Shown piece after piece: positions 121 through 29,221 of a stretch of DNA of 36,574 nucleotides. The stretch is from Nemertoderma westbladi (taxonomy: Eukaryota; Animalia; Xenacoelomorpha). Where the stretch lies: the NCBI GenBank assembly GCA_032718475.1, contig JAUCBJ010008595.1, forward strand, positions 1-36,574, read 5' to 3'. Numbering within the stretch: position 1 is the stretch's first letter; the number at the start of each line of letters is the position of its first letter. The position numbers and the translations under genes were made by a program. The notes under the pieces are model-generated. The model saw nothing but the letters and a program-made list of their open reading frames with translations, ran no database searches and was not told the origin of the DNA.

Positions 121-3100
121 TTATGATGAGGATACACTATTTAAAATATTACTCAATTCCTGGCGGGTAAAGCCATCTACAATACCTCCGTTGTTTAGGC
201 ACCAAATAATTTCCCTACAAAAATTAACTCGCCACTTATCTGCGTTCAGTAACGGTACATAAGTAAGATTAGATACCGCACGAGATGTCAGCAATTCAAG
301 ATTAAATATGTTACACATGTTTCCTATTTCTCGTAAATTTCTCCCAGACCGGGTACGACAATCAACTAAACATATATTAGCAAGAAAACGAATGCACATT
401 TTGTTAGACCTACGTAATGATAAACAAAATGAAACGAAGCGAGAGTAAAGCATAATACACGGGTGTTTAAACTGCACTAGGTTTTCAACAATATATCGAT
501 GAGAATTAAATGGTAATCCAAAAATCATTCTAACATTTACATTCCAGGTGCTAAAAATTCTTATACATGTTGGCGAAAGAAGGTTCCACAGGTTACTACC
601 GTAGAAACTAGTGCAATAACTACGTTGTACATTGCAAAGCACAAACGGGTCCGAAAAATATAGTTCCTGCCTTAAGGCATTCAATTTGCCTATAAACTGC
701 CCTCGTTTACGCACGATATCAGATTCCATTGAGTTTTTAAAGTCAAGAAGGTTACCGAGATGCAGCGCCTCCTTAACCCATGGAAGAGGCGAACCGTTCA
801 ACTTAATTGTCGCTAAAGGCTTAACCCAGACCCGCCCGAAAGCTATACACTTTGACTTGGACTTGTCCGGATTCGGATTCGTGCTGAATATTAACTTGTT
901 TTCCGATGCAAACTCTTCGCACAATTTAACCATATGCTGAAGGCCTACGATGGACGGACATAGCAAAAATAGGTCATCGGCATAACCAACCGCCCCAAAA
1001 TATACAGACCCCACGAAGCAACCTACTTTGGAATTTCTTAATTTCCTAAACAGCTTATCAAGTAAGATACAGAATAAGATTGGCGAGGCAACAGACCCTT
1101 GGCGTACCCCATTGGACGATGTAAAAGACTCAGAATGCGTATTATTCCATCGCACTACACAAGATTGATTATTGTAGATAAATAACAGAGACCGGATGTA
1201 AAACGGAGAAAACCCCTTCTTTAAGAGCTCAAGGAACAGCTTGCACCATTCCACCATATCAAATGCTTTAGAAAGATCAAGCAAACAGCCAAACACTGGA
1301 GTTGCATTTCTGGAATAGAAACTAATTACCTCAGTTGCAGCCCAAGTACACTGAGTGGTACTAGATCCCCGTTGAAACCCAAACTGTAACTCATCTAATT
1401 TTAAACAATCAGCCTGTGCGAGTAGCATCACCCATTCAAACAATTTAATCAGGAGAGACGACAAAGCGATGGCCCTATAATTTCCGGATACTGTATCATC
1501 GCCCAACTTATCCTTGATCAATGGAATGATAACACAATTCAAAAGAAATTGCGGAACGAATCCGTGAGTCAAAAAGGAATTAAATAGATTACTGAGATGA
1601 AAACAAAGTTCAGGAGGACCATGGATTAGACAGTCAGAATCAAAGCCAAAAGTCACATCTGTTTTAGAACTTTTTAGTCTGTGGAGACCCTCAGCAACTA
1701 AATCCGGAGAAACCCGAGGAACATCGTCCAGAGTACAATTTACCAACTTGGCATCAATTAGTGCCTTCAATGCTTCTAAATCTGAATTGTATGGCTGATT
1801 ATACAAAGATGAATAGATTCCCGCAAATCGATCGGCGATAGACTGCGGGTCTGTACAACCATCGATCGATGAACTAACATTATTCGATGAGAAACGGAGA
1901 TTCCTTATTTCCTTAAAGATGTCAGTATTATTCAACAAGCAGGCCTCAATTAATTTATCCCTTCGCACATTATCAGCTGAGCGTTTCACCCGGCGAACAG
2001 CATATTTATACTGAGCGCGAGAGACCCTTCGCATATGATATAAGTGGCTATTTTGTGATACATTTGGGCAACCCGCCGAGACCCACAAGGAATGCCAAAA
2101 CATAGCATCATCTCTGAACGGTTTCACCCGTTCAGACCACCCGGGGATAATAGGATGATTAAAGGGGGATCCCCTACTTCCATTACTACGATGTAAAATA
2201 TTACTGCTACACTGGTCAATAGCTTCCAATATATCTAAGGCATATTTCTCAGTAGATAACAAATGTTCTGGAACATTACAAAAAATATTATTACACTGAG
2301 TACACATAGGCAGCGGTTCTGCTAATGAATTCAATCTGATAGTTAATTGGTTAATAAATTCACGTTGCTGATCATTAGTGGAACGTTTAAATTTTACATT
2401 ACCTTCACCTATATTACTACCATTATCATTATCATTGCTATCGCATTGCACATTTGAAACATTTACTTTAAACTTAAGAAAAATTGGGGAATGAAATGAC
2501 AAATTGACACCAGTATGAATAACACCTGAATCAAAAATATTTTCACAAAATTGTGAATTACTGAAAAAATGATCCAACGTTGAATGAAATGCTGAATTCT
2601 CTCTAAAACATGTATATGTATAGTCAACTGGGTAAGAATCCCAAAGGCGATCGAATTGAAATTCTTGTATCATTTGATTAATTAAACTACAGTGCATCGT
2701 AGTGCGGCAGAAGTCAGCATTAAAATCCCCTGTGAGCAGAATATTGCACTGATTAACTGATAAAATAATATCTTTAATATCGTTTATTGTCGTAAGTAAA
2801 TCGTCGCTGATATTATTATCACGCGAGTCAACCGGAAAATAAGAATTGATAATAACCAATGGTTTATCATTTGGTAAATGTAAACGTATTGCTTGTGAAC
2901 GCGTATTCTTCACATTTATTCTAGAAATGTATTGAGATAATTTATTTCGAAAAATATAACATAATCCACCTGATGGCCTGCCTGCACGGATTTCATTCAC
3001 GGGATAAGTTGCAGGCTGTATTATGCACTGATAGTCGCTAAAAGCTGATTTTATTATATAACTATTCTCTCTTAGCACAAAGTGTTCTTGCAAACACACT

Positions 3101-3203
3101 ATGTCACTCCCTAATAATAACATATTTATAAATTCCCGTTTATCCGGCGACAAACCAGTGCTATTGTAGGATGAATAACAACAGTAGGATTTGAGGTAGC
3201 CAT
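121..3203 (-). CDS. LINE ORF2: AP endonuclease + reverse transcriptase, ~1025 aa; probable 1-nt frameshift just after the ATG at 3203
   Basis: APE motifs SYNSTG, CLQEH, GDFNAD, LDHF, SFHSP; RT motifs NYRAIAL, QFGF, LDLSKAFD, GVRQG, YADD. The open frame is closed upstream by TAA at 3205-3207; the nearest ATG (3203, MATSNPTVV) is one base out of frame. Confidence 0.93.
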
Positions 3204-3292
3204 TTTAGTATAATATTGAGTTTAGAATATATACACGCTAATGCTAAAATTAAAATAACAAAACGATTATGAAATGACATCACGACCCCTGA

Positions 3293-4537
3293 TCATGTAT
3301 TATTATCAATGCGCCCCTGCGAGTTATTACTATAATAACGCCAAGGTCGAACACAAATCCCCGCTCCCCATGTTTCAGGGGAGAGTGCCTTCTGATGAGC
3401 AGACTCCGGAACTGATATCTTATAACTATTCAATCTGGTATCGCTATGGGACTTTATTTCAATGTCTGAGACCTGGATTGTGATACCTGATTCAGCGAGA
3501 TCGGAAACTAGATCAGCGGTAGTTACCGACTTGTGAACTCGGAAGACGAAGATGTTAGCCGGAGCAGCGTTTGTTTTACGAGCAGAAACCCCAGACGCCC
3601 CGGTTCCTGCACTACCACTGGTACCGACGATATGTCATCGCCGTTGTTTACGCTGGAGCTGGAATGGCCCCCCCTCATCCACCGGAATCTCCGGCACATC
3701 AGGATGGCTGGCAGGCAGACCACCGCCCCCATCATCGCCGGAGGTGGATGCCGGTCTCAGTCACTTAGCACTGCCTGCCTGTGACGTGACAGATAACGCG
3801 TGATACGGATTGGAACGCAAGGTTGCCGATGGTGTAGCTGGTCTTCGAAGTTCTGGTGCAGGTGAATACGACCGATGAGCTACCGTCTTTGGTCGAACAC
3901 TCTGAGCGCCTGGCGATTCACGATAAACAGGACTCCCGGAGCGAGTATGTACTCCCTTTACAGATAGCGCCTCTCGATACGAGAGACCTAGTCGTGATAG
4001 ACGTGGTCCACCTTCTGTAGCTTTACTGTTACCGGAACCCAGGGAGCACAGACTGTGCACCATCGATTCGAGGGAACTAAATCTCTTACTGAAATCTTCT
4101 CCCAATGTTCGCAAACCCTTGTCGAACTTGTCCTCCATTAAACCTAACTTAACACAGGCTTCTGTGTCTCTCAGAGAACTACTGGTAGGAGATTCAATTG
4201 GTAAACTTCCGCTAGAATCCATTAAACGCATCTTCTCGTGGATGTCTATAATGTTCGCCTTAGCTGCAGTACGTGTAGCTGAGTCACGTCTTTCAATTGG
4301 ATCAAACCCACATAATTTAAACAGTTTATCCTTAGCGCAAACAACTTCGCCTGGAGTAAATCGCATGAGGCAAGATTCTTGCACGGTCCCGGACAGATTC
4401 GACGACAAACCCTGCATCAGCAAGGACAAACAGCAGTCTACAATGGTAACATTGCTTCTATCAATCGTTGTAGTTGTGCCCGTTGGACCTTCATCCATTG
4501 ACGTTGGCTGCGGAAGCTGTAAATCCGCCGCCGCCAT
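3293..4537 (-). pseudogene. LINE A ORF1 (414 codons) with two in-frame TGA stops
   Basis: Reading from ATG 4537 through TGA at 3761-3763 and 3635-3637 gives the C-terminal ANIFVFRVHK...SYKISV...LSPETWGAGICVRPW, matching LINE B ORF1 LRIFVSRFTP...SWPQGILVKRHW (RRM-like). Confidence 0.85.
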
Positions 4538-5138
4538 AATACAGTAATAAATACCCCGTAATAGTATTACTACGGGACTGTCTGTCAGATAGTATGCAGT
4601 ATAAAATGTACCGGTATAGCAGTACAAAGTTGCAGCTCAGTCAGTGTATGTGTTATGCAATCATTGGATTGTTATGGTGGTCGAACTCAGGATAGATTAA
4701 GTTCAGGTAGATCATCTCGCAGCTCCAAATGGGATGAATATGGAAACAAGCCACAACCTCAACTGAAGGAGATAAAGATATTGCGCCATTACTTTGAGGA
4801 TGACAATCATACATTGCACAAGGGTCATGTGCATATGGAAATATGCAGCATTTAACTTTGGTTGGTTCCCATATAATCCTAAACTTACCATATTGTTATT
4901 ATATATATTTTTTAAATATATCTTCACCTACTGGCTACTGTCAAACTGTACTGTACATAGTGTACAACACTATGTGCTGGAATATAGTGCCGTTATTTTC
5001 AGGATTAAATGACTTAGACTCTACCATAAAGGATAAGATAAGTGCACTATTACGTTCCCTTGATTATGGTATGATACCAGTATTAACAATATCCTTCTCG
5101 TTAATGTATATTCATGGAATAATAATAATAATTTATAG

Positions 5139-6191: not shown

Positions 6192-6423
6192 ATAAACAGC
6201 GCAAATAACTTTAACTTCATAATTTGAGAAATAAAGATTCTAAAAAACAGCTGACATTTCGATTTATTTAACAATAATCATTTTCAAAGCAAAAACAAAT
6301 AAATACCTGAAAATTAGTGAAAGACAGTACTAAATACAATAATAAGGCTGGTGAAGATTGCAATAACAATACAAAAAAAAACAATTTACCAAATAATGGG
6401 TGTGGCTAGTATGCACAAAAAGG
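6192..6423 (-). repeat. Penelope 3' pseudo-LTR
   Basis: Near-identical direct copy of 11274-11497. Confidence 0.88.
6250..6290 (-). ncRNA. Hammerhead copy in the 3' pLTR (GAAATGTC instead of GAAACGTC)
   Basis: Same motif as 11332-11372 with one C>T change in stem III. Confidence 0.6.
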
Positions 6424-6759
6424 TTGTAATTGAATATGGAAGGCGTGTACAGCAGTACAGTACTACAGAAACAACAGAGCGGATAGTACAAGACAGTCCA
6501 GTAAGAAAGTCAGGACCTACCGGTACACGAATAAGGCAGTACGAGGGGTAGGGGCGGGGGGGGGGGGGGGGGGGTTGGATATATCAGGGAACTACAGTAG
6601 GGGAAGGAAAGTCGAAGTGTTTGGTCATTTAAAGTGGGGCGAAGTTTCCTAATGAACAAAGTCTCTTTAATGAGAAGTTCGCGCAAGTTACGGGATGTTG
6701 ATAAGATGCTGAAATTTTCTTTTAACGTGGGATGATCGGCCCTGGAGGAGTGTTCAAAG

Positions 6760-9049
6760 CTCGGGTATTCTTAGAAATATCAGAGAAAGAGATAACTATT
6801 TGTATAAATTTAGGAAATACCGTGTTTTAGCTGATTATAATAATTACTGCAAATATAGAAACCTTGTCCAACGGGAAATAAAAAAAGCTAAATCTGAATA
6901 TTTGTACAACAAAATAAGTGAGAATAAGATAATCCTAAAAGTCTATGGTCTACTGTACCCTAAAATCTTTAGGTTATAAAAAACTTAAATCTAATTCGAA
7001 TATTGTTCTGCAAGATAACGGTGAGCTGATTCATGATTCATGATCATAGTTAGTAATTTATTTAATAATTATTTTACTAATGTTGCCTCTAATTTAGTTA
7101 AGAAGTTACCGTTATCAAGTAATAAATATAATATAGGGTCCGAAACTCTAAATAATTTTTATTTAGAAAAGTTTCAAAATTCAGAAAAGTTATTTTTAAA
7201 ACCCGTTTCTGAGGATTTCGTTTTTCAAAATCACTTAGCCTATCAGCCTCAAAAAGTACCGGTCTAGACCTAATACCTGCCCGTTTTCTTAAGGATGGTG
7301 CTGAAGTACTTAAAGTGCCTATTACTTTTATTATTAATTACTCTATCGTAGATAATGTAGTACCAGACGAACTGAAATTAGCTAAGGTTGTTCCTCTGTA
7401 TAAAAAGAATAGTAAAGTAGAACCCTGTAATTACAGACCTGTTAGTATCTTAAGTATTGTATCTAAAATTCTAGAACGTTCTGTTTTTCTACAGCTGGAA
7501 GCACATCTTAGTAGGCTAAATCTGATCTATGAACTTCAGTCCGGTTTTCGTAAATCATATTCTACAGACAACTGCCTTATTAACTTAACTGATACAATTA
7601 GATGTAATAACGCAAAGGGTTTATATACTGGTATGGTAATGTTGGACCTACAAAGGGCTTTCGATACTGTAGATCACGAAATTCTGCTTGGTACGTTAGG
7701 CCTGATGGGTGTAGGTTCTATAGACTGGTTCAAGTCCTACCTGTCAGACAGAGGTCAAACTGTAGTCATTAGCAAATCACAGTCTACTGTACAAGAGATT
7801 ACCTGTGGTGTACCACAAGATATTAGGTCCTCTGCTTTTTGTATGCTATGTAAATGATCCCGATTTTCAACTCATTTTATATGCCGACGACAGTGCTCTT
7901 ATTTTCTGTCATAAAGATCCTATCCATATTTCCCAAAAGTTAAGTGCAGTTCTAGAATCCTGTATTGAGTGGTTGGTTGATAATAAGCTATCCATTCACT
8001 ACGGTAAGACTGAAAGTATTTTATTTGGTTCCAAAAGAAAGTTAAAGAAGGTAACTAAGTTTGAAGTCACTAGTAATGGACATAAGATTGAAAATAAAAA
8101 GGAAGTTAAATATTTAGGCGCCACATTGGATAACTGCTTATCAGGAGTTAACAGTAGGCTTGGGTTTCTATACAGAAATAAAATTAGTTTAAACACCGAC
8201 TCCCGCAAGTTACTTTGCTCTTCTTTAATACAGTGTCACATGGACTATGCATGCTCTTCTTGGTATGAAGGCTTAACCAAACAGCTTAAATGTAAATTAC
8301 AAGTAGCTCAGAATAAAGTAGTACGATTTATTAAAGACTACAAACCTAGGCACCACCTAACTCCAGATGACTTTTCTGAATCGAGACTACTTAACTTAGA
8401 TAGTAGAGTTAAGCAGCTACGACTTAACCATGTGCATAAAGTGTATAATGGTAAATGTCCCAATTACCTAAAACATAAAATTCAACAGAGTACGCGATAC
8501 ACACTCTTACAGTACCAGAGCTAGTGCTTCAAACTTCTACCTCCCGAATTGTAAATCCTTCGAATCTGATGCTTTCTTTTTTAACGGCATTAAAAATTCG
8601 AACGCTCTGCCTAATGAAATAAAAACCTAAATAATCAACATTCTTTTAATTCTGCAGTTAAATCTCACCTCCGAGTGCAATGTAAAAATAGGTACAATAG
8701 TCCTACAGTAAGTTATTAGTTTATTAATTATTTACTATTTATACTGTAATTACATTTTATAATAAATTGTTCTGCACATTACATCTTTATCGTTGAGGCG
8801 GGCATTGTCACGCTCTCTGTAAAGTTGTACATGTACATAGTGTAATTACGTTTTATATTGGTTTTAGGTTAGCGTAGTGTAATATTGTATTTGTAACCAA
8901 GTAACATAAAGGACCCCCTTGGAAATAAGCTGCAAAGCTTTAGGGGTAATCCTATATGTTATGTTGGACAATACCTTTATACCGGTACATTGTTTGGTGT
9001 ATTTGTTATTGTTTTTACATCATGTATAAATAAATCTATCTATCTATCT
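6760..9049 (+). mobile_element. 5'-truncated, frameshifted Crack/L2-group LINE (RT portion + 3'UTR)
   Basis: [30 protein letters not shown] and YADD across ORFs 7040-8524. 3' stem-loop GGACCCC..GGAAATAAGC..GCTT.AGGGG..ATCC (8911-8952); AATAAA(TCTA)n tail ending at 9049; AAAG at both junctions. Confidence 0.9.
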
Positions 9050-11273
9050 AAAGATAGAATAATTTTTTGGACGGGAGAATTTTCCAGAGTTGTACAAAAA
9101 GCCAGTGTGTTCCTCAACACATTTAGCCAGGTGGCGTACAGTGCGTCCAACGTAAGAAGCATCGCAGCTTCCACAATTATAATGGTTCACAACACCTGAC
9201 CGTATGTGTTCAGGAATCTGATCCTTGCATGGGAATAGGGAGGATAGCCTACAGCTGGTTTGGAAGACAACTTTTAAATATAAGTGAGAAAGACTCTGTC
9301 GGAAAAGGCATAACAGACGTTTCTTTACAAGCACGCCGTGGTGGCCGGTAAAAGGAAGGCAGGTCAAAACACTCCGTTTAGGTACTGTAGTTATAGGGGG
9401 GTGATCGTGGTTCACTAATACAATTGAAGAACTTTTTAATGGCAGAGTTAATGAAAGCCAGTGGGTAACCATTACAACAAAGGGTATGAGTGAGTTCTAT
9501 TAACAAAGAGTGACACATGTTGTAACTAGATCCAATCCAAACTTAAACTGTATAGGGATAAAGCTGTTAAAATTAGATTAGAGACCAGTGTAGGTCGGTT
9601 TTTTATAAGTGCTAGTCTGAAACTTTGTAATAAAATTTTGTTTAACCAAAATATCTAGAAATGGCAGGCACGAGTTTACAGACTGTTCACAGGTGAACTT
9701 GATATTAGAATGTTGAGAATTTAAATAAGACAAGAAATCAATCGACTGAGAGATATTGTTAAACACCAAAAGGTTTCATGTTGTGCAAGGAAAGCATCGG
9801 CTAATACGGTGCCAAGGGGGCTGCCCATTGCTACACTATCTAGTTGTAAGTACATTTAACCATTGAAAATAAATGTACAATCTTTAACAGCTAGCGACAA
9901 TAAGGTTTTAAACTCAGCACGATTGAGACCGGAAATTCTAGGCTCCACACTATTGAGAGGTGTGAAAGAAGATGGATTGGGTTCCGGTATAATAAATAAA
10001 TTGTTTAACACATAATCAATAGTTTTTACTAGAGGAATGTTAGTAAACAAGGAGACTACGTCAAAACTACATAAGTGTACCGCCATTTCAGGACAAAAGT
10101 TTTGAATCTCCTCCATAAAGGTGAAAGAGTCTTTAATGGAGAACTGATTGTTACATATAGGTTGGATTAGCGGTACGAGGAATTTAGCGAGATTATATGA
10201 CGGACTATTGGTTGCGAAGTGGAACACCATCTTTATGGGCTTTAGCCAGTCCATAAAGAACACCCGGATGACTACCAATTGGTCTAATCCGGTGGTAAGT
10301 CTGGTTGTCAATAAGTTTGCTATTCTTCAACATACGTAAGTACCGAGTGATACGTCCTTCTCGACGTAACAATCGTTTGAGCTAATCACCATCTAAATGG
10401 CGAAACTTAGAGGTGTCATTAAGGATCCCCTCCAGTTTCTGATTGTAATCTACCCTATTCATTATTACTACACCATTCCCCTTGTCCATTTTGGCTATGA
10501 CGATAGATTTGTCATGTCAAAGAGTTTTTAAAGCGACCCATTCCTCTCGAGAAAAAAGGTTGGACTTACCAGGCGTGTAGCTATGAGCTGCTGACAAAGC
10601 TATATCTTTGAGTCTGGCCTTAAATCTCTCTTTGGCGATGGAACAATGCTCAAAGGCGATGTCTCTGTACAACCACTCGAAGGGTGGTAAATAGTCTTCC
10701 GGTTTAATCTTCCGAGCTGCTATAGGGCAATTCAACCCTTTAGAGAGGGCAGAAATCTCAATATCATTGAGCTGGCGGGAGGACAGATTGTGCAAAATCT
10801 TCTTGGAATCGAGGGAAGGAGGAAGTTGTGTTTTGACCAAATTTGCGAGCTTCTTAATGTGAACATCTCTCCAACTTTCATCCGAGCGTTTAATACGTTT
10901 AAACACTACGCGTTCCAGGTGGGGCCAATCGAGGAAAGAAGTATTATCCTTTAGGGAAGTTAGGGGTCCGATTTGGTTCCATAAGGAAATTATGTTCCTC
11001 CGCTTAGAACGGATCTCAGAAGAAAGGAAACGTACCTGCGCTGCGCGATAATCGCGGTACGGGATAGATGATGAGGCTAGTTTGAAACTCAGGAAACGCG
11101 GAATAACGTCACGCCTTCTACATTCTTCAAGAATCTCCAAGTCAAGTGTTGATTTTTGCAGTTTGGATTGTAGATGCTCAAATTGCCTATATGAGGCAAA
11201 CGTGGAATCCCCATAATGCCGTTTAACGGTAAATGATAGAGTTTAAGTTGCTGGGAATCTGAAGCTTATTATT

Positions 11274-11497
11274 ATAAACAGCGCAAATAACTTCAACTTC
11301 ATGATTTGAGAAATAAAGATTCTAAAAAACAGCTGACGTTTCGATTTATTTAACAATAATCATTTTCAAAGCAAAAACAAATAAATACCGTACAGTACTA
11401 AATACAAAATACAATAATAAGGCTGGTGAAGATTGCAATAACAATACAAAAAAAACAATTTACCAAATAATGGGTGTGGCTAGTGTGCACAAAAAGG
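11274..11497 (-). repeat. Penelope 5' pseudo-LTR (contains the ORF start)
   Basis: Near-identical direct copy of 6192-6423; includes the ATG at 11302. Confidence 0.88.
11332..11372 (-). ncRNA. Minimal type I hammerhead ribozyme variant (U3-A8 core) in the 5' pLTR
   Basis: Minus strand: GCT-TTGAAAAT-GATT(11 nt)AATC-GAAA-CG-TC-AGC. Stem I GCT/AGC, stem II GATT/AATC, palindromic ACGT stem III, GUC cleavage triplet. Confidence 0.7.
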
Positions 11498-11975: not shown

Positions 11976-13038
11976 GTTAATACGATGCATGTTTTCTCTG
12001 ATCGTAATGGTTGTTATCAGGTTAAATGTGTAACCTCTATCTCATATATTGCTCTCGTCATTATTGGTTTATTTTGTATAAGTCAGTGGGATAGTTGGTC
12101 TGTTGACAGTATTTGGGGTTGACAGTATTTGATATTGATGACTTATATTCTGAAGGACTAATAATGCTGCCCGCAGTGTAGGGAATGGAGGGGAGGCTAA
12201 TCCTAAGGTCGGTTATGAGTGTTTCATTAATGGTGTAGGAATGGGAGCATTGCCTGGTGGTTGGAAGGTCTGTAATTCGAGAGTCACTGGTGTTTGTTTA
12301 TTATAGTCCATTAGCTGGAGTCATAAATCAACAGTTGACATGTTTATTCGTTTTAAAAAATTTCCCATAGATGTTGTTGGTTTGTTCTTGGTGAATATTC
12401 AATATAACAGGGGTATAAATATATCTCCATAATTCTATATTATAACAGAGGTATAAAATCGCGCTTTATCAATAAGATGATAGCAAATGGGGTATCTTTG
12501 GGTTGTTGATATCATTATAAATGTAATGAAAAGGCAGTGGTGGTGTGACATTGATTTTTGATGTGGTATAGTGAGATGTATTGGTAATCTGTTAATTGGT
12601 AGGGGAATAGTGTTTAGATGGATTGTTTTGTTGTGTATTTAGGAGAGATATTGTCCGTTATCATTATAGGTATAGAACCTGTATTAAATAGTAATAGTAT
12701 TTATTACTAACTAATCCAATATCAGCCATATTAATTGCCAATTTGTTCGTTAGTTTATATCATGCTAGTTGAGTTACAATCCCAGTATTTGTCAGATTTG
12801 TACAGTACCAATTATACCTTAATTTTTAACATGCATGAGTATGTAAGAGTATGTATTATACATTTATTATGGGAAGGGATCTAGTCTAATCTAGCCTTAG
12901 ATCTAGTCTAAATGTATAATAACAAACACCTCGAAAAATACAGCTTGCCAACACATTCTTACTATCAATAATCAAAAATCAGGGGCTAATAAAATGGCAG
13001 CTGTCTTTGAAATTAATTATCCATATCTCAAGAACCTG

Positions 13039-13091
13039 TGGCCTAGTGGTTGTAGTCTCGGCTTCCGCCTCGAGGTCCCAGGTTCGAATCC
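13039..13091 (+). promoter_or_regulatory. tRNA-derived internal RNA Pol III promoter (A and B boxes)
   Basis: A box TGGCCTAGTGG at 13039-13049; B box GGTTCGAATCC at 13081-13091; anticodon-arm-like CTCGG/TCGAG stem between them; no acceptor stem. Confidence 0.85.
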
Positions 13092-13094
13092 GAC

Positions 13095-13137
13095 ACCACG
13101 CTGATGAGACCCAGTAAGGTCGAAACGCGTACGTGGT
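13095..13137 (+). ncRNA. Minimal type I hammerhead ribozyme
   Basis: ACCACG-CTGATGA-GACC(CAGTAA)GGTC-GAAA-CGCG-TA-CGTGGT: intact core, 6-bp stem I, 4-bp stem II, palindromic ACGCGT stem III; predicted cut after GUA (13131). Confidence 0.9.
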
Positions 13138-14186
13138 TTGGAGAGATATGAGATATTAATTTCAAGAAAAATTACGCGATTCCTAAATTTGTACACTACC
13201 CGGTTAAAAAGTACGCATGTGATGGGATTAGTCCTACAATTGCGCCAATAAAAGATAAGTTATTTTCGGTAAAATAAACTTATCATTCGAGGTTAAGACC
13301 CCTAGATCCCTTCCCATAATAAATGTATAATAACAAACACCTCGAAAAATACAGCTTGCCAACACATTCTTACTATCAATAATCAGAGTATGTATTGACA
13401 CTCGGCGAAATGATAGGTGAGCATTGCAATTAATTTAGTAAAAGTTTTGAACAATATGTACAGTATTCCATTAAGTGAGATTATGACTGATATTCTCAGT
13501 AAATCATGCATTCGTCTTGCAAGCTTACCGCTTTAGTTGTATGATTCAACTTATCCTGTGGGGCGAGCCACAAAGTGAGTGAGCCTTAGCGTAGTGGTAC
13601 CATTAATCAACCTGTCGTTCTGTCGGTTTTTTTTCAGTATTTTATTTTAAACGTTAATAACTCGGCCAATCCTTGATGAAATCTATCCAAACTTGGTACA
13701 CATGTTGTTTGGCAAAAGTTTGAAAATTTTCCAAGTAGAATTTGCGTGGGGCCTTCGTGCAGCATCAGTGTAACTGTTATTGCAGTTATAATAAATTTAT
13801 TTATCCAAATTTAAAATGCGTTAAATTATTATTACTGTAGGATAAATCAGCTGGGTTTCTGGCAAATTTTGCAATTCTGCATGTACCATGTGTACCGGTA
13901 CTGTCAGGCTGTACTCAATCCCTGAATCGAGAATCCTGCAATCAGTCAATACTGCAATACTGGTCAGCCGGTACCATACACTGCAGACATGCCATATCAT
14001 GTAATCTAATTAAACATGGCCCCGGAACCCTTGCGGTGATTATAGTTTAGGCCTAATTAGCCCAGTACCGGCACCAGTAATAATAATATAATAGTTTAGA
14101 TAGTTACCGCTAATCATTCAGTCATTGGCACGGTACACCGTATTGCTGTACTGCCGTTGTAGTGCGCACCGTAGGTACCACCCATA

Positions 14187-16006
14187 GCCTACTACACACA
14201 GGCCATGACAAGGACTTTGCTGTGAAATTAGCGTAGGCTGACTGTGCTGATTATGGTACTGTCAGGCTGTGGTACCTAAGCTATATACTGTTAGGTATAT
14301 TGCTGTATTGGGGTGGGGTTAGGAATAATCCATTTGTTTTAGCATTGAACTGTTGAATCCCCTTATTTATTATAAAACCATTGGAAATATTCGCAAATGC
14401 CGCTCCATTACTGTCTGAAACGCTCCCAACAGTCCGATGTATCTGGACCCGAGCAGCCGAGTTGCTTCAAGAGGTGATTAACGGGGGAATACTACGGAAT
14501 TGCTTGTTTGTCAGTACGATTCTAATTGGGTATTTACTACACTCAAGACACTGGGAATACGGCGGTCAGTCAGATCGTAATGCGGGCCACTGCCAAGTTC
14601 CTCATGCCTCACTCCGGTCACCCACCTTGGAGTGCGGTGGGAAGAGTCCCACTTACTGACTTACGTCGACGACTGGACGAATCGACGAGGATTGCGATCT
14701 GGGTTTAGCGGCGGCCCGGATCCTGGGATTGCCTGGGGGAAATGGTTGAACGTTGGGCAGACGTTATCGCACTGGATTACGTTCTCTGTGACGCGAAAGT
14801 GTGAAGCGAATACGTTGTCGAATTGGGTCGGAAGCTGCGGGAATTCTACTGTTCTACAGGAGTAAACCGCAGCGGTCCGGTGACTACGGACGGATACTAC
14901 TGGGATAAGCAGGTATTTCGATCGAGTTTCTCGTATTCTCGATGCTCGAGGCGGATAGAGAGTTGGTTGTGTTGGGCGGTGTTGTTCAATTCTATCAAAC
15001 ATATTAAATAATTGGTAAAATAATAAAAACACACCAGATATAGATAATGAGCTTATGGTAAAGAGATAGGCCGAACTTACAATTTCCAAATAGATTGTTC
15101 ATATAATAAATATATTTTTGGTATTTGATTTCAAGATAGAACTGGACGCAATAAAAATCCCCTCTCCAGGGGAAATTGGACGCAAATAACAACAGCTGAT
15201 TACTCTCAAAAATAAAACTGTAACCGGTTCTATTGTGTTTACTTTATTGTTTTGGTTAAAATAACGTGCCACTGTAACCTGCTCCTTTCCCAAAATTGAG
15301 AAATTAATATTGAGGCGGGATATTAATTCGCCAAGATGGGATTTGCGTCCAGTCCCACCCCCCTCCTATCTCTTGATTTTACTAAAAAATAGAATACATT
15401 GCATTTTACTGTTATAATTACTGTATTGAATAAAATAATTAATTGATTGTTTATTAAACCGTGCTAAGCACGTTGAACTGGAGCTCTAACAATTCCCCAC
15501 TAGCGGCAGACAGGAACTGTAAAAGTCTCTGTAGAATTTCTAATTAAGCAATGCTCTTAGGTAACTACTACTAAATTTCAGATGAATCTGATCGTTGGTT
15601 CTATAATTACAGCTATTTTTACGTTTCTGTTAATTCGCCCCCTAGCGGCAGACCGGGGAACTGTAGAAGTCTGTCTGTGTGTAGAATTTCTAAATTTTTT
15701 ATAGACTACATGTGTACCAAGTTTGGTTCCATTTCATCCATGATTGACCGACTTATTAGCGTTCAAACATTCCTGCCACAAACACAGCCAGAGGCAGCCA
15801 CAAACGAATAAAAGCTGCAGGAACTCGAGCGATAATTAATTTATTAATTATTAAATACTGTTTCAATTAAATTCTTTACGAAAATCTAGTCATCTTCTTT
15901 TAAATATGGACCTTGCATTCATGGAAAATATAATATTTGATAATTCATCAGTCAGCCTACGCTAATTTCACAGCAAAGTCCTTGTCATGGCCTGTGTGTA
16001 GTAGGC
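14187..16006. repeat. Perfect 58-bp inverted repeat pair (14187-14244 / 15949-16006)
   Basis: GCCTACTACACACAGGCCATG...GCGTAGGCTGACTG and its exact reverse complement. Confidence 0.9.
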
Positions 16007-18598: not shown

Positions 18599-21402
18599 TT
18601 AGGTTACCCCAAGCACCACTAACCACCTCTTACGCAACACCGAGAGAGGAGAAACGTTAGCAATTACACGAATAATGATGTTTTGTGAAACATCAATACG
18701 TCGTAGCAAAGAAAAAATATTACTTCTCTGCATAGCCCTAAAAGTATTGATCCTATTATTTACAAAAATTTCACTAGCGTCCTCAGTTCTAGAATATTGG
18801 AAAAGTGATCTAAAAGCAGTATTATAAGCTACCTTAACCTTGCGCAAATTCTCAACACGAAATATAGACCAGAGTGAGCAACAGTACATGCTGTAACAGT
18901 AGGATCTAAATAAGGTTAACTTTACATCATATGAACAATTCGAAAATAATCTAGCAATCTGGTTACCCCTACAATACATTGAGCACATTATACGTTTCAT
19001 ATCTGATTCATCGCTTAGATCGCAAGTAATTGTATGCCCAAGGTAATTAACCTCCTTAACACAATGTAATGGTTTACCACAAAGATATACATCACCAGCA
19101 CGGTTAATTCTATAAGGAAGAAAATACATACAGTGAGATTTAAGCGGGTTAAATTCAATATCAAATTCCACCCCAAACTTTTCACAAATAGCAATTAACT
19201 TACGTAGACCAAAAATGCTAGGGGATAATAAACATAGATCGTCTGCATAAAAAAGATTATTAATAATAATGGAACCTACTTTGCAACCAACAAAAGAGAC
19301 GTTCAAGCGTCTACTTAATTCCGTCATATAGATATTAAAGAGAACAGGGCTGAGAAGGCTCCCCTGTCGTACACCATTAGTAACAGTGAAGACATCCGAG
19401 GAAGCACTTCCCCATCTTACAAAAATATATTGATTTGAATACCAAAAGGAAAGAATACGCACAATTGAAACCGGTACATTAATATCCAATAGCTGTCTAA
19501 ACAATTTAAAATGATTTACCCGGTCAAACGCCTTAGACGCATCTAAGAACGCCGAATACACTGGAGATTCTCGACTGACATATAAATAACAGTTTCTTTT
19601 AACGCAAAAATACACATTTCAGTGCCTAGAGCTGACTGAAAACCGAATTGATTATCAGTACATTTAGCACGACCCTTGATAAAAGGCAGTATACATGCCT
19701 CAAATACTTTCGATATCGCGTTAGCAACAGCTATAGGTCTGTAATTAGTGAAATCAGAATAACTAGCATTCTTATTTTTAATTACAGGTAAAATACTAGA
19801 AGTAATAAAGCTATTAGGCAAATAACCATGAACCAAAAAAGCATTAAATAATAGGGCTAACATTACTGACAAACGCGGCCCTGCAAATATTAAACTTTCT
19901 GGAAAAATCCCATCCGGACCTGCAGCCTTTCCTTTAGAAAGACTCTGAACCGCCTCATAAACCATAGACGGAGTAATATGCACATAATTAGAACCATCCC
20001 AATTATCAAACACACCTTTCACGTAGACAAAATCATCATCCTTACACGGCATTGAGTTAAAGATATGCTCATCACTACTCTTAAAAAGATCAGCTATTTC
20101 CGGTTCGGAATTAGCACCACCAACATTATTGGAACGTTTAATTTTCGCGTTATTTCGCGATCGCACTGAACTCCAAAAATCGTTTTTACTATCAATAAAA
20201 GACTGAGCTAATTTGTCGTCTCTGATAGACTGCACAGACCGACGACAATTACGCAGGGCCAATTTGAACTGCGCGGTTGCACGCCGTTTCACGTCCCAAA
20301 TAAAACCGAATCTCGGTCGCCCCTGCTCACACCATATATGAAAGGCCTCCTGCGCCGCTTCATATTTTTCTTTAACAAACTCGTTCCAACCGGGAACAGC
20401 ATTAGTAGTCCTACTGTTATAACTACACTTAGAAGTAGGGATATACTTATCTACACTAGATTTAATAGCACCAATAACTTGGTCGTAAGATATTTTAAGA
20501 CTGCTTAAATGTTCAGGGTTACTACAGTGAACATCACAACAAGTAACAGAGTCCGGTAAATTAAATATAGATAAGCACTCATCTAAACCATTATGGTAAG
20601 CATCGATTACAGTACTATCTACCTTCTTCCAATCGGAACGTGGAGAAGCTGGTTCTACGTGTACGTGCCTGGGAGATGAATCTACAGAGACATCGCACAC
20701 AAAGGATAACGGGAGATGATCATCAACCGAAACATCTGTAACTACTTTAAGACCAGAAATCTTGCCATGGAAACTTGGCGTAGAAACTACATGATCTAAC
20801 CAAGACACCGTACCGTAAATATGACTTATATACGTAAACGTTTCCCTTGGTAATAAAATAACATCTGATACTATCAACGAAGAAAAATTACAGAAATTCT
20901 GTAATTCTGTTCCAAAATTCCGACCGGGCATAGCATTAAAATCGCCAATAACTGCACAAAGATTACCGGGGTGGTCATTAATACTTGTAAAGCACACTGA
21001 TAATAATTCCAAAAATAATTCGAAATTATCCGAATTATCGCACGGAAAATAGGCATTAATTAAAAACATCGTGGATCCATCCGAGCACTCTACAGTAACA
21101 CCTAATAAACGATTGTTATTCAAATCAATTATTTTAACTTTATTATTCAACGACTTATGCCAGAGGATGGCTAGCCCCCCGTGAGGCCTGCCAACACGAG
21201 GACCATCACTTAGATCTACACTTGCCACCCCACTACCAAAATAGTCGCCTTCAATGCTGTTTAAAGAATGCAGGTCCTGCTTGTATTGCCACGTTTCCTG
21301 GAGAAACAATATATCGTGATTTTTACATAGCGACCTAACATGGTCCATATGGGAGGTAAGACCTCCACAGTTATACGAACATATCCGCAAATTATGACTC
21401 AT
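18599..21402 (-). pseudogene. LINE B ORF2 (APE + RT) with a single frameshift near 19585
   Basis: SYNCGG, LQETW, GDFNA, LDH, DDHLP, NYRPIA and QFGF in 19543-21402; FLDASKAFD, GVRQG and YADD in 18599-19615. The frames join at LKETV/YVSRESPVY. Confidence 0.93.
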
Positions 21403-21555
21403 TATCTATACTAAAAAATTACTTTTTAACTAATTAAAACTGTTACTATAAATAACAATGGGTACTGAAGCAAATTGGGTTACTTAGAAATTAAGTTGGA
21501 TTATTTGATTAGAGTCTTTAGTGTAATAGTCTCTAACGCTACTCCCATCCAGCAC

Positions 21556-23205
21556 TTAAACCCGAGACCCATCCATAGGGACCCAGTGCCTCTTCACAAG
21601 AATCCCCTGCGGCCAGGATCTAGTGTCAATAAGTTTTTCATACACATCCTTACTCCGAGTTATTATAATAAACGAGCTATAGGTCTGGTGTAGTTGTTTC
21701 GGGTTAGCAACCACCGAACCAACAGACAAATTATGCTGCGAGTTAATAAACTCCTCGACAACCGCTGCTGTTGTTTCGGGGGTGAAACGAGAAACAAAGA
21801 TACGCAACTCTCGCGGCTCACGGGCAGCCGCAACTAGGCCAGGAAACTCAAAAGTACCGGTTCCAATCGGCGCCGGACGTTTCTTCCGCCTGTCGGCAGT
21901 GAAACCACCAGGGAACGCAGCACGGGTACCAGAAGCAGGAGGAACAGGACCGTCCGATGTAGCAGGTTGCTTGGAGGGACCTCCATCGACACCGCCGCCA
22001 CCCCGGCGTCGTCCTCGTAGACCACGTAGTTTAGCAGATCGAGGACGTCGACTTGCTTCTTCACTGTCGGAAGCAGCCTGATCAGAAGTCAAATCAACCA
22101 GCGGATCAAACCGATTGTGAACTGCTGGCTGGGGACTGGGGAAGTAGGTAGGCAGGGGACGCCTCGGGGGGTGGCCAGGATGGCCACGAACTGCACTCGC
22201 ATATGAGTTGAGCTGGATTTGATTAGAGACCCGAGCCCGATGGAAGTTGCCACTGGATACAGCTGTGGCTCCCTCCTGTCCGGTGTTCGTACCATGTTCG
22301 GAATAATCGGGATCCAGATCTGCCCCGGAGGCGGAGACAAGGTCTGTAACTTCCTCCTCTTCATTACGGGTATAGTCGACGGGGCGAGGAAACTCCCTCT
22401 GGCACAGATTATTCGAAGAAACCCGATCAGAGACCCTCACGGAAACCAGATTAGCGACAATAGGACTGACCAATTCCGGCAGATCATCCTTCTTACAGTA
22501 CGATTCCTTGAGCAGGATGTCATGGCGTTCAATTGAGAGTTTCATTTCTAGGAGGGAATCACGAATATCTCTAAAGTCCTCGTCGCGTACAGCCAAGTTC
22601 ACAGACTGTTTATCCGTCGGCGGTAAACGCGCCGGATTTAGCGTGTAGAAGCATGGACAATTCTCTGAGTCTACAAAACAACTCTCGTTGAATAAATTAT
22701 ACATGTCAAGGACATGATTTCTCTTCGCTTTATTGCCGATACGACCAACCCAGGAAGGCAACGGGCGATCAGGAATAGCACACTTAACTGCCTCAGCGAA
22801 GAGCAATTTATTCGCTAAAACAATATCATCCAGCGAGTAAAAGTTCGCGATCGCAGCAGACAACTGAATTTTGTCTAGCGTGGAAATTCCAAACTGCAGA
22901 AAACAAAGCAGTTCCGAGTGAACGAGCCGACAGTCTGCTCCATGATCATCTAGGATCGGTGCCTCCTCCACCAGCCCCCAATCCTCAGTTTGAGAGATGG
23001 TAATCGAATCACTATCATTACCGTCCTCCTCCACCGTAAACACTTCAGTCACCCTTGGAGTCATACTGTCACAATGCTTCAAGCAACAGGTTTCACATAA
23101 AAGCCTATTATCCAACAATTTAAAGATCACAGATGGTTTACCGTTTACAGCACTAATTGGCAGCTCCACGGTCAGGCAATCTGCACACTTCTTTAGTGAT
23201 GTCAT
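21556..23205 (-). CDS. LINE B ORF1, 549 aa (N-terminal CxxC pairs, coiled coil, C-terminal RRM-like domain)
   Basis: Intact ORF directly upstream of ORF2; ELLCFLQ..FYSLDDI..RLPP and IFVSRF..WPQGILVK motifs. Confidence 0.88.
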   Translation of the reverse strand: MTSLKKCADCLTVELPISAVNGKPSVIFKLLDNRLLCETCCLKHCDSMTPRVTEVFTVEEDGNDSDSITISQTEDWGLVEEAPILDDHGADCRLVHSELLCFLQFGISTLDKIQLSAAIANFYSLDDIVLANKLLFAEAVKCAIPDRPLPSWVGRIGNKAKRNHVLDMYNLFNESCFVDSENCPCFYTLNPARLPPTDKQSVNLAVRDEDFRDIRDSLLEMKLSIERHDILLKESYCKKDDLPELVSPIVANLVSVRVSDRVSSNNLCQREFPRPVDYTRNEEEEVTDLVSASGADLDPDYSEHGTNTGQEGATAVSSGNFHRARVSNQIQLNSYASAVRGHPGHPPRRPLPTYFPSPQPAVHNRFDPLVDLTSDQAASDSEEASRRPRSAKLRGLRGRRRGGGGVDGGPSKQPATSDGPVPPASGTRAAFPGGFTADRRKKRPAPIGTGTFEFPGLVAAAREPRELRIFVSRFTPETTAAVVEEFINSQHNLSVGSVVANPKQLHQTYSSFIIITRSKDVYEKLIDTRSWPQGILVKRHWVPMDGSRV

Positions 23206-24819
23206 TCCGGTCAGTGTAAGCAGTACAGCAGTATAACGCTAGGATTTAGCTAGGCTTCAGCCTGCTGATGTGATAGATACCACCTCAGATAGATTGAGAG
23301 ATCAGATAGATAGATTGACAAATAATTACGATTTACTGCACATTAGTTGCGGTTTCCTAAACATCTTTACAAAAAAAGTTGTAACAACATTCATACAGTA
23401 ATTATCTGCGTCTTCAACTCCTGCTGACCAAATCGTTTCTAGTGTTCTAGAGTAGTTCTAGAGAACCGAATACTAGACAGATAATTACAACGGATTGTTT
23501 AATCGAGACACCGTAATTTACATTCTTTAGGATTGTAGTATTATGTACTCGCACTCACTCCACTGATAATAATACGGAATCACTCTGATTTGCTGACTAT
23601 TACCAATTTTGTTCATGTATAAGGAGTAATTAAGCTCACTTACATTGGTGTTATGAAATAGTATAAATACCACACAGACCACAGTAATTTGAGCCAAATT
23701 GTTACTCATACTTCCCTTCTGCTTACCTCTCGATAATAAAGAAAGTTAGTTGAGATTATCGATTATATATACGTATTCTCCAAATATATACATCCAGCAA
23801 CAATATTACCGAACAAAATGAACAACAGTTCCAAAAACAGTAAAATAACATCGGTGGCGGCAGTTAATCGGCAGTCAGATGTTTGACGTTAATAAGTTAA
23901 AAGCAGTAAGTGTAGAATGAAATGAAGGAATGCAGTGCAATTAATGAGTGAAGGTAACTTACTGGTCCTCGATAATTCACGCCACTGTTGTTTTCTGTGC
24001 TGAATACTATCTCACTGCCTAAGCCTATGCATACTCTGAGTTATAAACACCAGTAAAAGGTGAGTCATAGAATTTTTAGAATCCTGGTCAAAACTCCAAT
24101 CGGGAGCCAGTAATCCAGTCAGCTGTCTGTAACTAAGGGATTCAGTTTCCTGTGTAATGGAACTCTAGGGTCGGAGAAAGTGAAAATTGCATTGATTGGT
24201 CGTTTTGATATCACAGGGGGTATGGAGATATAGAAACCAGGGTTCAGTTTTTGAGTGATTTCGTCAACAGAGTCATATACCAAAAGTAAATGCAAGAAGG
24301 CGTAAGTTTATATGTATACTTTTCCTAATTAACGACAATATACTTCTTGAAACTTGTCAGTTGACATTGGAGGTGCCAAATTCTATGTTATATATACTTA
24401 TTCATATTTATCCATCTAAAAATCAATCAGCCCACTAATTTAGAGGTCCTGCTGCAGCTTGGCAGGTCGTGGTTTAGTAGGTCATGTCTCAACTATCTTG
24501 AGATATTGTTGCGTTTAGAGTAGTTCGCGCATTGCCAAAAAAGATACATTTTTGCTGCAAAAGCTTTTACACTGCTAATCTCGCCATCGACCAACCAGTA
24601 ACACTGGCTGTTCTCCACTTTGAAGTAGACCCCACACTGTTCCTGCCACACAACATGAATCTCCCCCTAGACACCAACAAGAAAGAATTACCATGCGAAA
24701 TGGCTATACAATCCAAAGGCCAAACTATTTTTTTCTGACAACGGTTCTGTGGGAAGCTGTGTAGTGTCCTTATCCATGACTGGTATGGAACTGTTCATAT
24801 AATATAACTTTTACTTTAA

Positions 24820-26259: not shown

Positions 26260-26940
26260 ATGACCGGGTCTCCTCCAAATCCTCCAGGTTTCCCCTCAAT
26301 TAATCCCCCTTTAATTGCCCCCCCTCACCTCCCCGATGGATACGCGGCAACACCTTACGACCCACACTCCACATCAGTAGGCCCCAATCCATCTCCGCAA
26401 TACTGGAACCCAGTATACAGACAGTGGATGTCGCCTACTGCAGCGGAACGGCGCGCAAGTATGTCGGCGCGGCGGCGCGCCCTCAGACAGTACGGAGCGC
26501 CGGCCGGATTACTCGCCGGTACCGTCGGATTCCTCCTCGGCGGTTCCGGCGTCGTCAGGGCAACCCGCGGGGCAGCCGCCGCTGTTACCGGGGTGATAGT
26601 GGCGCAGGAGGCCACGCGTCGAAGCTGCTTGCGGGATATACTAGGGAGTATGGAGGACTCCCCGATGGGGGATATGGTACGACAGTTCGGTAAGCTGCCA
26701 GGGGATACTCCTAAGTCAGCATGGACTGATCAGCGATCGGGAGAGCAGACCGTTAGCTCGGAACCAGTTTGGGAAACTAACCCGAAACAAGATGAAATAA
26801 TCACCGATTTACCGTACGAGACACATTGGGGCCTAGGTGAGAACGAAACTGTGTTCAATGAAGGTTCTACGCAGAGTAATAAAAACTTCGATGAAGAATA
26901 TGAATTTTCAGATCAATCACGGAATACTAAGTTTAGATAG
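26260..26940 (+). CDS. OCIA-domain-like (OCIAD1/asrij-like) membrane protein, 226 aa, intronless
   Basis: GC-rich ATG-initiated ORF; Pro-rich N-terminus, two small-residue hydrophobic helices, then SCLRDILGSMEDSPMGDMVR resembling the OCIA motif C..K...L.NSPLGEALR; acidic tail. The family call is by eye. Confidence 0.6.
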   Translation: MTGSPPNPPGFPSINPPLIAPPHLPDGYAATPYDPHSTSVGPNPSPQYWNPVYRQWMSPTAAERRASMSARRRALRQYGAPAGLLAGTVGFLLGGSGVVRATRGAAAAVTGVIVAQEATRRSCLRDILGSMEDSPMGDMVRQFGKLPGDTPKSAWTDQRSGEQTVSSEPVWETNPKQDEIITDLPYETHWGLGENETVFNEGSTQSNKNFDEEYEFSDQSRNTKFR

Positions 26941-27494
26941 CTACGGGTACAGCTAGCACTGTGCCCACACACACACATCGTTGTTTAGATAGCTACGGGT
27001 ACAGCTAGCACTGTGCCCACACACACATCGTTGTTTAGATAGCTACGGGTACAGCTAGCACTGTGCCCACACACACACATCGTTGTTTAGATAGCTACGG
27101 GTACAGCTAGCACTGTGCCCACACACACATCGTTGTTTAGATAGCTACGGGTACAGCTAGCACTGTGCCCACACACACACATCGTTGTTTAGATAGCTAC
27201 GGGTACAGCTAGCACTGTGCCCACACACACACATCGTTGTTTAGATAGCTACGGGTACAGCTAGCACTGTGCCCACACACACATCGTTGTTTAGATAGCT
27301 ACGGGTACAGCTAGCACTGTGCCCACACACACACATCGTTGTTTAGATAGCTACGGGTACAGCTAGCACTGTGCCCACACACACACATCGTTGTTTAGAT
27401 AGCTACGGGTACAGCTAGCACTGTGCCCACACACACACATCGTTGTTTAGATAGCTACGGGTACAGCTAGCACTGTGTCCACACACACATCGTT
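26931..27494. repeat. Minisatellite, 11 copies of a 50/52-bp unit
   Basis: GTTTAGATAGCTACGGGTACAGCTAGCACTGTGCCC(AC)4-5ATCGTT; units differ almost only in AC number. Confidence 0.97.
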
Positions 27495-29030: not shown

Positions 29031-29119
29031 TTACCAGGCTATTTCTCTACCGTACCTAATCTAATCTACAACAATTAATAATTAAATGCTTGAGTTAATA
29101 CAATTATTTTATTCTTTAA

Positions 29120-29221
29120 TGTCAAGCTGAAGTAAAAACCTTACCGGTAGGTTTTTATTTTAGTATTTGTATCGTACTGTACTTGCATACCTACCGGTAA
29201 GGTTTTTACTTCAGCTTGACA
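29120..29221. repeat. Perfect 33-bp inverted repeat with a 36-nt loop
   Basis: 29120-29152 is the exact reverse complement of 29189-29221. Confidence 0.92.

Follow-up and report, generated by a model that had tools for sequence, protein, structure and literature searches.

A young non-coding repeat with a tRNA-like head, a type I hammerhead and a Penelope-type insertion footprint

The closest described systems are Sm-alpha and Sj-alpha of Schistosoma, very-high-copy repeats in which a tRNA-derived Pol III promoter is followed by a type I hammerhead, whose cut parts the promoter from the body so that a tandem arrangement is needed for propagation (PMC6765202, PMC2770079). Metazoan non-LTR retrozymes are described as units of 150-450 nt with a G+C content below 50%, a canonical type I hammerhead and no ORF (PMC7229834), having target-site duplications (TSDs) longer than 4 bp and copies of more than one unit, with Penelope-like elements (PLEs) proposed as their partner. 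A 2020 review presents retrozymes as seemingly promoterless and as carrying no motif that would name this partner (PMC7761336), and for animal retrozymes both the transcriber and the inserter are left open in print (PMC7229834, PMC7761336). A 2026 preprint argues for a PLE partner from co-occurrence and pLTR similarity (bioRxiv 10.64898/2026.07.22.740005). The scars of PLEs comprise an inverted 5'-truncated copy, a one-sided tail and a TSD of 8-10 bp (PMC8557442, PMC3846280), and in vitro the anole element Poseidon has both strands cut and extended from an internal A/C-rich start without homology (PMC11167929).

We examined a window of 36,574 nt (the whole stretch of DNA analysed), which is animal-like and rich in repeats and holds three RT/APE-type retroelements, one broken Penelope element and tandem arrays. 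Self-comparison of the window showed that one insert occurs in it only once, at a locus of 551 nt measured from TSD to TSD (12846-13396). The features that the original prediction had listed for this locus were all located when the sequence was checked, and are given with others in Table 1.

Table 1 Positions of features of the insert and of the terminal repeats of the window's Penelope relic.
Feature	Position	Strand	Remarks
Left target-site duplication	12846-12857	+	12-nt repeat AGAGTATGTATT; last 4 nt, TATT, fit the inverted piece too
Inverted 5' piece	12854-12884	-	reverse complement of 13302-13332; carries the rare 13315 allele
Junction filler, 24 nt	12885-12908	.	short re-used bits, ATCTAG twice
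First 66-nt terminal redundancy	12909-12974	+	opens the 477-nt direct copy
Full 411-nt unit	12975-13385	+	G+C 162/411 (39%), without a long ORF
23-nt stem, left arm	13007-13029	+	upstream of the predicted Pol III start
tRNA-like head	13030-13091	+	A box 13039-13049, anticodon-loop-like 13062-13068, B box 13081-13091
Type I hammerhead	13095-13137	+	geometry of the canonical metazoan form; helix III palindromic
Hammerhead stem I, 6 bp	13095-13100 / 13132-13137	+	
Hammerhead core	13101-13107	+	CTGATGA
Hammerhead stem II, 4 bp		+	GACC/GGTC; no extra base ahead of stem II
Hammerhead GAAA	13122-13125	+	
Hammerhead helix III palindrome	13125-13130	+	ACGCGT; 2 bp of helix III around the palindrome
Hammerhead cleavage triplet	predicted cut after 13131	+	GUA
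23-nt stem, right arm	13143-13165	+	pairs with 13007-13029
T4 run	13263-13266	+	no other T4 on the sense strand; might act as a leaky Pol III terminator
Second 66-nt redundancy	13320-13385	+	68% A+C, predicted unstructured; end = family's common 3' end
Right target-site duplication	13385-13396	+	second copy of the 12-nt repeat AGAGTATGTATT
Penelope relic terminal repeats (pLTRs)	6192-6423 and 11274-11497	-	each with a min-HHR, U3-A8 core variant

The body of the insert is a direct copy of 477 nt (12909-13385), consisting of one 411-nt unit plus a 66-nt redundancy (1.16 units). As predicted, the two 66-nt repeats are exact and stand 411 nt apart, the 31-nt inverted copy of the end at the 5' side forms a perfect pair with its source, and the unit is non-coding, its longest stop-free run being 80 codons. 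The proposed 12-bp TSD stands as a 12-nt repeat; the duplication itself measures 7-12 nt, since 4 of its nucleotides are shared with the inverted piece and 1 with the direct repeat. With this TSD, a unit of 411 nt, a G+C count of 162/411 and no long frame, the insert lies within the dimensions described for metazoan retrozymes. The 5' junction contains 4 nt of microhomology, and the 3' junction has only 1 nt of homology to the target.

The Penelope-type footprint claimed for the locus was likewise recovered, as the inverted 5' piece, a one-sided tail, a TSD near 8-10 bp and a partial tandem are all present; the tail, at 53 nt, is longer than the 30-40 nt usual for PLEs. Penelope/Poseidon elements and non-autonomous riders such as MRC1 share with the insert the inverted 5' copy, the one-sided tail, the TSD of about 8-10 bp, the partial tandem and, as far as its putative RT start goes, the A/C-rich internal position (PMC11167929, PMC3846280, PMC8557442). 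The insert differs from them in lacking an ORF and in having a canonical hammerhead, a tRNA-type promoter and the 53-nt tail. The stretch at its putative RT start is predicted to be unstructured (-0.3 kcal/mol) with no stem-loop, whereas Poseidon starts in a stem-loop (PMC11167929). We infer that the inverted 5' piece is a short cDNA primed from the top strand, and that the 24-nt junction filler is a repair scar.

The A and B boxes of the tRNA-like head stand directly upstream of the hammerhead, and their combined pattern matches once in the window against 0.02 matches expected from 200 shuffles. Local alignment of the head with 126 tRNAs, mostly prokaryotic or phage, gave a score of 64 (best shuffle, 54), with no clear parent isotype among them. 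Neither ARAGORN nor the Rfam tRNA model (no match at E<=10) called a tRNA at the head of the insert, and we therefore describe it as tRNA-like only. Read by the genetic code, its anticodon-like loop corresponds to Gly (TCC), and to Glu (TTC) in the diverged relative described below. The original prediction placed the hammerhead 4 nt behind the boxes; the boxes and their order stand, and the gap between B box and stem I is 3 nt. The T4 run that it listed is also present, at chance level, as shuffles average 1.5 such runs per unit; because its frequency matches that of shuffles, the run was rejected as a meaningful terminator.

The left arm of the 23-nt stem lies upstream of the predicted Pol III start, so that the stem can form only in read-through or circular RNA, in which it would keep the two ends of a monomer side by side. 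Most family members have at 13018, as read by hand, an allele that puts a pair in place of a T-T mismatch in this stem. Folded as a circle, the 411-nt unit reached -99.9 kcal/mol versus -77.4 +/- 5.8 kcal/mol for 60 shuffles (z -3.9). A tRNA-like 5' head with A and B boxes and an A-rich or LINE-derived 3' tail are the hallmarks of tRNA-derived SINEs (SINE2). The insert shares with SINE2 the head and its boxes, a TSD and a high copy number, but its head lies inside a permuted unit, an A-rich or LINE-derived tail is lacking and its length exceeds that of a single unit. With the head internal, and the 3' end internal to the unit, a classical LINE-dependent SINE2 was rejected.

A descriptor of the type I hammerhead found one match in the window and none in 100 dinucleotide shuffles, and the pattern of B box plus hammerhead core behaved in the same way (1 match; 0/100 shuffles). 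The Rfam model Hammerhead_HH9 fitted 13085-13152 in part, with 26.6 bits, under its gathering score of 52 (E-value 0.013 when searching the window and 7.8e-5 when searching 226 nt). The hammerhead had been labelled minimal, a label that we correct, as its geometry is that of the canonical metazoan type I form, with a helix I of 6 bp, a helix II of 4 bp and a short palindromic helix III. This form is the one described for Schistosoma and retrozymes, whereas the min-HHR of PLEs has a short helix I, a long helix II and an extra base before helix II (PMC4209133). In the insert, the B box ends in bases that also serve as helix I's outer arm, and helix III comprises 1-2 bp with a palindromic loop. 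Helix III is absent from the lowest-energy fold of the monomer; in the dimer fold both hammerheads are complete (-32.9 versus 2 x -12.3). G-U and A-U pairs form across the would-be loop 1 in the lowest-energy fold and close it, making an activating loop 1-loop 2 contact doubtful. Since it holds only one hammerhead, the insert copy itself cannot release a monomer or make a circle.

Family-level evidence was drawn from contigs of public sequencing runs aligned to the locus. Of 12 listed runs, 7 (belonging to 5 studies) contained the stretch, whole or in part; run X9 yielded no contigs. Two DNA runs, X1 and X3, contained 3410 and 1279 contigs matching one unit, and 2738 and 912 of these, respectively, were at least 95% alike to it. 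Summed depth ranged from 10^5 to 8x10^5 over the unit and from 10^2 to 10^3 over the flanks, a quantity that is no measure of copy number and supports only "high copy". Depth is even across all 411 nt and the unit closes on itself in contigs. These data from X1 and X3 bear out the predicted repeat family with a monomer of about 411 nt, as a young, high-copy, cyclic unit; the contigs are too short to display two hammerheads, and no such tandem occurs among them. No long continuation beyond the unit is shared in X1 or X3, the share running on unlike being 0. Because depth continues past the common end described below and no common long continuation appears in these two runs, the unit is cyclic rather than being the terminus of some longer coding element.

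An empty site was found in two of the four runs compared: the joint 12845->13385, at which 12 letters can be assigned to either side, is present in X1 and X3 and absent in X4 and X6. The flank is itself repeated (summed depth of hundreds to thousands), so that this site may be a paralogue and not an allele. Run X4 (RNA by guess, under a different organism label) contains a closed contig of 441 nt, that is, 411+30. We did not count this closed 411-nt cycle as an RNA circle; DNA carry-over is likely enough, because a neighbouring high-copy repeat stands at similar depth (17.4 versus 13.8) and 2 of the 3 listed runs with the same label contain none of the sequence words of the locus. In run X6, a 600-nt contig on 13250-13374 has seven listed differences, all T>C and all within 13281-13331, a pattern that could stem from an antisense template edited A-to-I or from divergence of long standing.

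Many copies of the family share a 3' end. Contigs that depart from the unit just past 12971-12972, where unrelated sequence follows (agreement 0.42-0.48), numbered 17 in X1 and 19+7 in X3, and these end groups are the largest among the 15 listed of 414 loose-end rows. The insert's own end at 13385 (= 12974) matches this common end, 12971-12974, which is located 254 nt past the predicted cut and ~60 nt before the tRNA-like head, and which we infer to be an internal RT start. The insert also carries two alleles that are rare in the family: C12958, where G makes up 462866 of 471080 depth in X1 (a difference that appears in the locus comparison table and is missing from the unit comparison table), and C13315, where T makes up 494933 of 495102. 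These rare alleles are common to both 66-nt repeats and both inverted arms. It follows that all parts of the insert came from one template (or identical siblings) of more than one unit, intact across the cut site. From the sequence, this template may have been a circle or an uncleaved multimer; both fit the data.

The majority allele at 12973 (C>A) lengthens the A-rich run at the 3' end. Pieces 13132-13301 and 13029-13192 in X1 and X3 are diverged copies at single loci, in which the likeness sets in either right at the first base past the predicted cut or close to where Pol III is predicted to start; they give a weak hint of linear templates. In run X1, the joint 12884->13091 is a second inverted junction that also ends at template point 13302 (a CTAG palindrome), has a 12-nt filler ending in ATCTAG and rejoins at the hammerhead. 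It represents another locus or a deleted allele, and hints at a recurrent stop point.

Three contigs of sediment run X7 contain a diverged relative. It shows 1 change in the 80 nt of 13075-13154 (B box plus hammerhead) and 11 changes in the 55 nt of head preceding this block; counted by interval, there are 11 changes in 13020-13104 and 22 in 12968-13104. The difference between the ribozyme block and the head gave Fisher p values of 2e-4 to 3e-4, in a comparison of 3 contigs at depth 3-10 from a run that was found via the conserved block. The middle of the relative is unalignable, with a spacing of 173 versus 165 nt. The ribozyme is kept in this relative while the tRNA-like head drifts, which is good but not strong evidence that the hammerhead is under selection.

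Scanning metagenomes for a B box plus core yielded at least 119 loci; among the 112 that were re-matched, an A box followed by a type I hammerhead with a short helix III occurred in none, and blastn of the metagenome loci against the insert returned nothing beyond a 21-nt B-box match. The viral scan gave 73 matches at 72 loci, 0 with an upstream B box and 0 of the insert's geometry; the tRNA-head motif had 0 matches in viral contigs, and the prokaryote genomes scanned gave 0 matches. Two metagenome loci, L051 and L066, are prokaryote- or phage-like tRNA genes with a hammerhead core a few bases past the CCA end, in which helix II is well paired.

The locus is probably best explained as the recent insertion of a young, high-copy non-coding repeat. 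This repeat is likely an Sm-alpha-like retrozyme driven by Pol III, and was likely inserted by a Penelope-like RT/GIY-YIG protein. The design of promoter plus hammerhead is not a new class, as it has precedent in Sm-alpha and the non-LTR retrozymes, to which the sequence suggests that the insert likely belongs, and the Sm-alpha precedent limits the surprise of the design. The insert has A and B boxes and a readable footprint, in contrast to the retrozymes of the 2020 review (PMC7761336). Circles and cleavage have been demonstrated for published retrozymes and are predicted for the insert; Xenopus retrozyme families resemble pLTRs (bioRxiv 10.64898/2026.07.22.740005), whereas no such link was found for the insert. 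Our literature search, which covered few subscription journals, returned no tRNA-promoter retrozyme with a Penelope footprint and an empty site; nor did it return a report of a Penelope-type footprint, or of an internal RT start at a fixed position, for Sm-alpha. No partner element was identified in the window, since the insert shares no significant sequence with the window's Penelope relic. Within 551 nt, the locus of this young family combines a candidate promoter with a predicted cut, and a fixed 3' start with an empty site; with these defined, the proposed mobilisation of retrozymes by Penelope becomes testable.

More tentatively, the family may be a currently active, self-promoting circular-RNA retroposon, in which Pol III transcription, hammerheads and a 23-bp clamp would give a 411-nt circle, and Penelope would prime on both target strands at fixed internal sites. 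In the favoured explanation given above, the RNA-level steps would run as follows: within a tandem source locus, Pol III would initiate near 13030 and pass the T4 run to continue into the following unit, hammerheads would cut after 13131, probably as dimers, and the 23-nt stem would clamp the monomer ends for a host ligase to close the circle. At the enzyme level, the Penelope protein would nick both target strands 7-12 nt apart, and reverse transcription would begin inside the A/C-rich stretch, with homology unneeded. The bottom-strand cDNA would measure 477 nt (1.16 turns) and the top-strand cDNA 27-31 nt, and repair would join the two head to head via the 24-nt filler. If the more tentative circular-RNA reading were true, the locus would be a direct genomic record of retrozyme circles serving as templates of Penelope TPRT, and promoter-bearing retrozymes would recur as a class outside schistosomes. 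A circle is not required, however, since in vitro Poseidon works with RNA that has not been cleaved (PMC11167929), and no cleavage occurred in 8 of 9 retrozyme dimers from Xenopus (bioRxiv 10.64898/2026.07.22.740005).

An uncleaved linear multimer transcribed from a tandem array could accordingly have been the template, with the Penelope partner kept, the hammerhead slow or protein-gated and no circles taking part in insertion. The cDNA does span the cut site intact, and identical adjoining units of a young array would share rare alleles too; the weak helix III and the doubtful loop contact point the same way, as does Poseidon, which inserts from unprocessed RNA and whose hammerhead needs protein (PMC11167929). 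We nevertheless consider this reading unlikely, because the ribozyme is strongly conserved in the X7 relative, the 23-nt stem spans the monomer's cut ends, and the canonical-hammerhead retrozymes of coral, mussel and axolotl accumulate as circles (PMC7229834).

Lower still is the probability that the family is mobilised by LINEs, CR1/L2-type elements being abundant in the window, and that the inverted piece arose by ordinary twin priming. The geometry of the insert fits the twin-priming model of LINEs, and the three RT/APE-type elements in the window, the 4 nt of microhomology at the 5' junction and the longer A-rich 3' run in the majority allele (12973 C>A) are in keeping with it. However, the 3' end falls inside the unit, which is permuted, the insert has no poly(A) or repeat tail, and blastn against the window's LINEs gave nothing above chance. 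Copies of more than one unit and inverted 5' pieces are, by contrast, routine for PLEs (PMC8557442, PMC3846280).

The level depth over 411 nt, the self-closing unit, the lack of a common long continuation in X1 and X3 and the absence of an RT/GIY-YIG frame in the unit make it very improbable that the insert is a solo pLTR derived from a coding Penelope element that has a tRNA-type promoter. Its footprint is of the PLE type, and a short frame begins in the hammerhead core, as in Poseidon (PMC11167929), but this frame ends after 15 codons, and the hammerhead is canonical, versus the min-HHR of the window's real pLTRs. Least probable of all is a SINE-derived satellite spread by DNA-level recombination with the hammerhead as a passenger: such satellites are reported (PMC10702118) and the copies are highly homogeneous, but the TSD, the empty site, the inverted piece with filler and the fixed end in many unrelated flanks indicate retrotransposition, and the ribozyme is selectively conserved.

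The broken Penelope/Poseidon-type element of the window lies on the minus strand at 6192-11497, between two terminal repeats that are 92% alike, and in both repeats an ATG stands where helix II of the minimal hammerhead begins. It retains DKG, RT and GIY-YIG motifs in shifted frames, and a LINE RT fragment (7213-8524, plus strand) is nested inside it. Pfam matched no domain in the three Penelope pieces of the window, which were assigned by motifs and by homologues carrying PF00078. Two RT/APE retrotransposons, both with ORF1-like frames upstream, lie on the minus strand at 121-4636, with an intact frame of 1027 aa, and at 18599-23238. Beside the insert, at ~13550-13750, is a second very high-copy repeat with an inverted relative at 15685-15767. 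A selenoprotein N-like gene without apparent introns occupies 33417-31879 on the minus strand; an in-frame TGA after Ser-Cys (32235-32233) joins its two frames, and its nearest homologues are only 32-41% identical, by which the host of the insert looks unrelated to that of Sm-alpha. The window further contains tandem arrays of 52 nt x 10.9 copies (26931-27489) and 40 nt x 49 copies (34022-35981), and a long hairpin (29103-29238).
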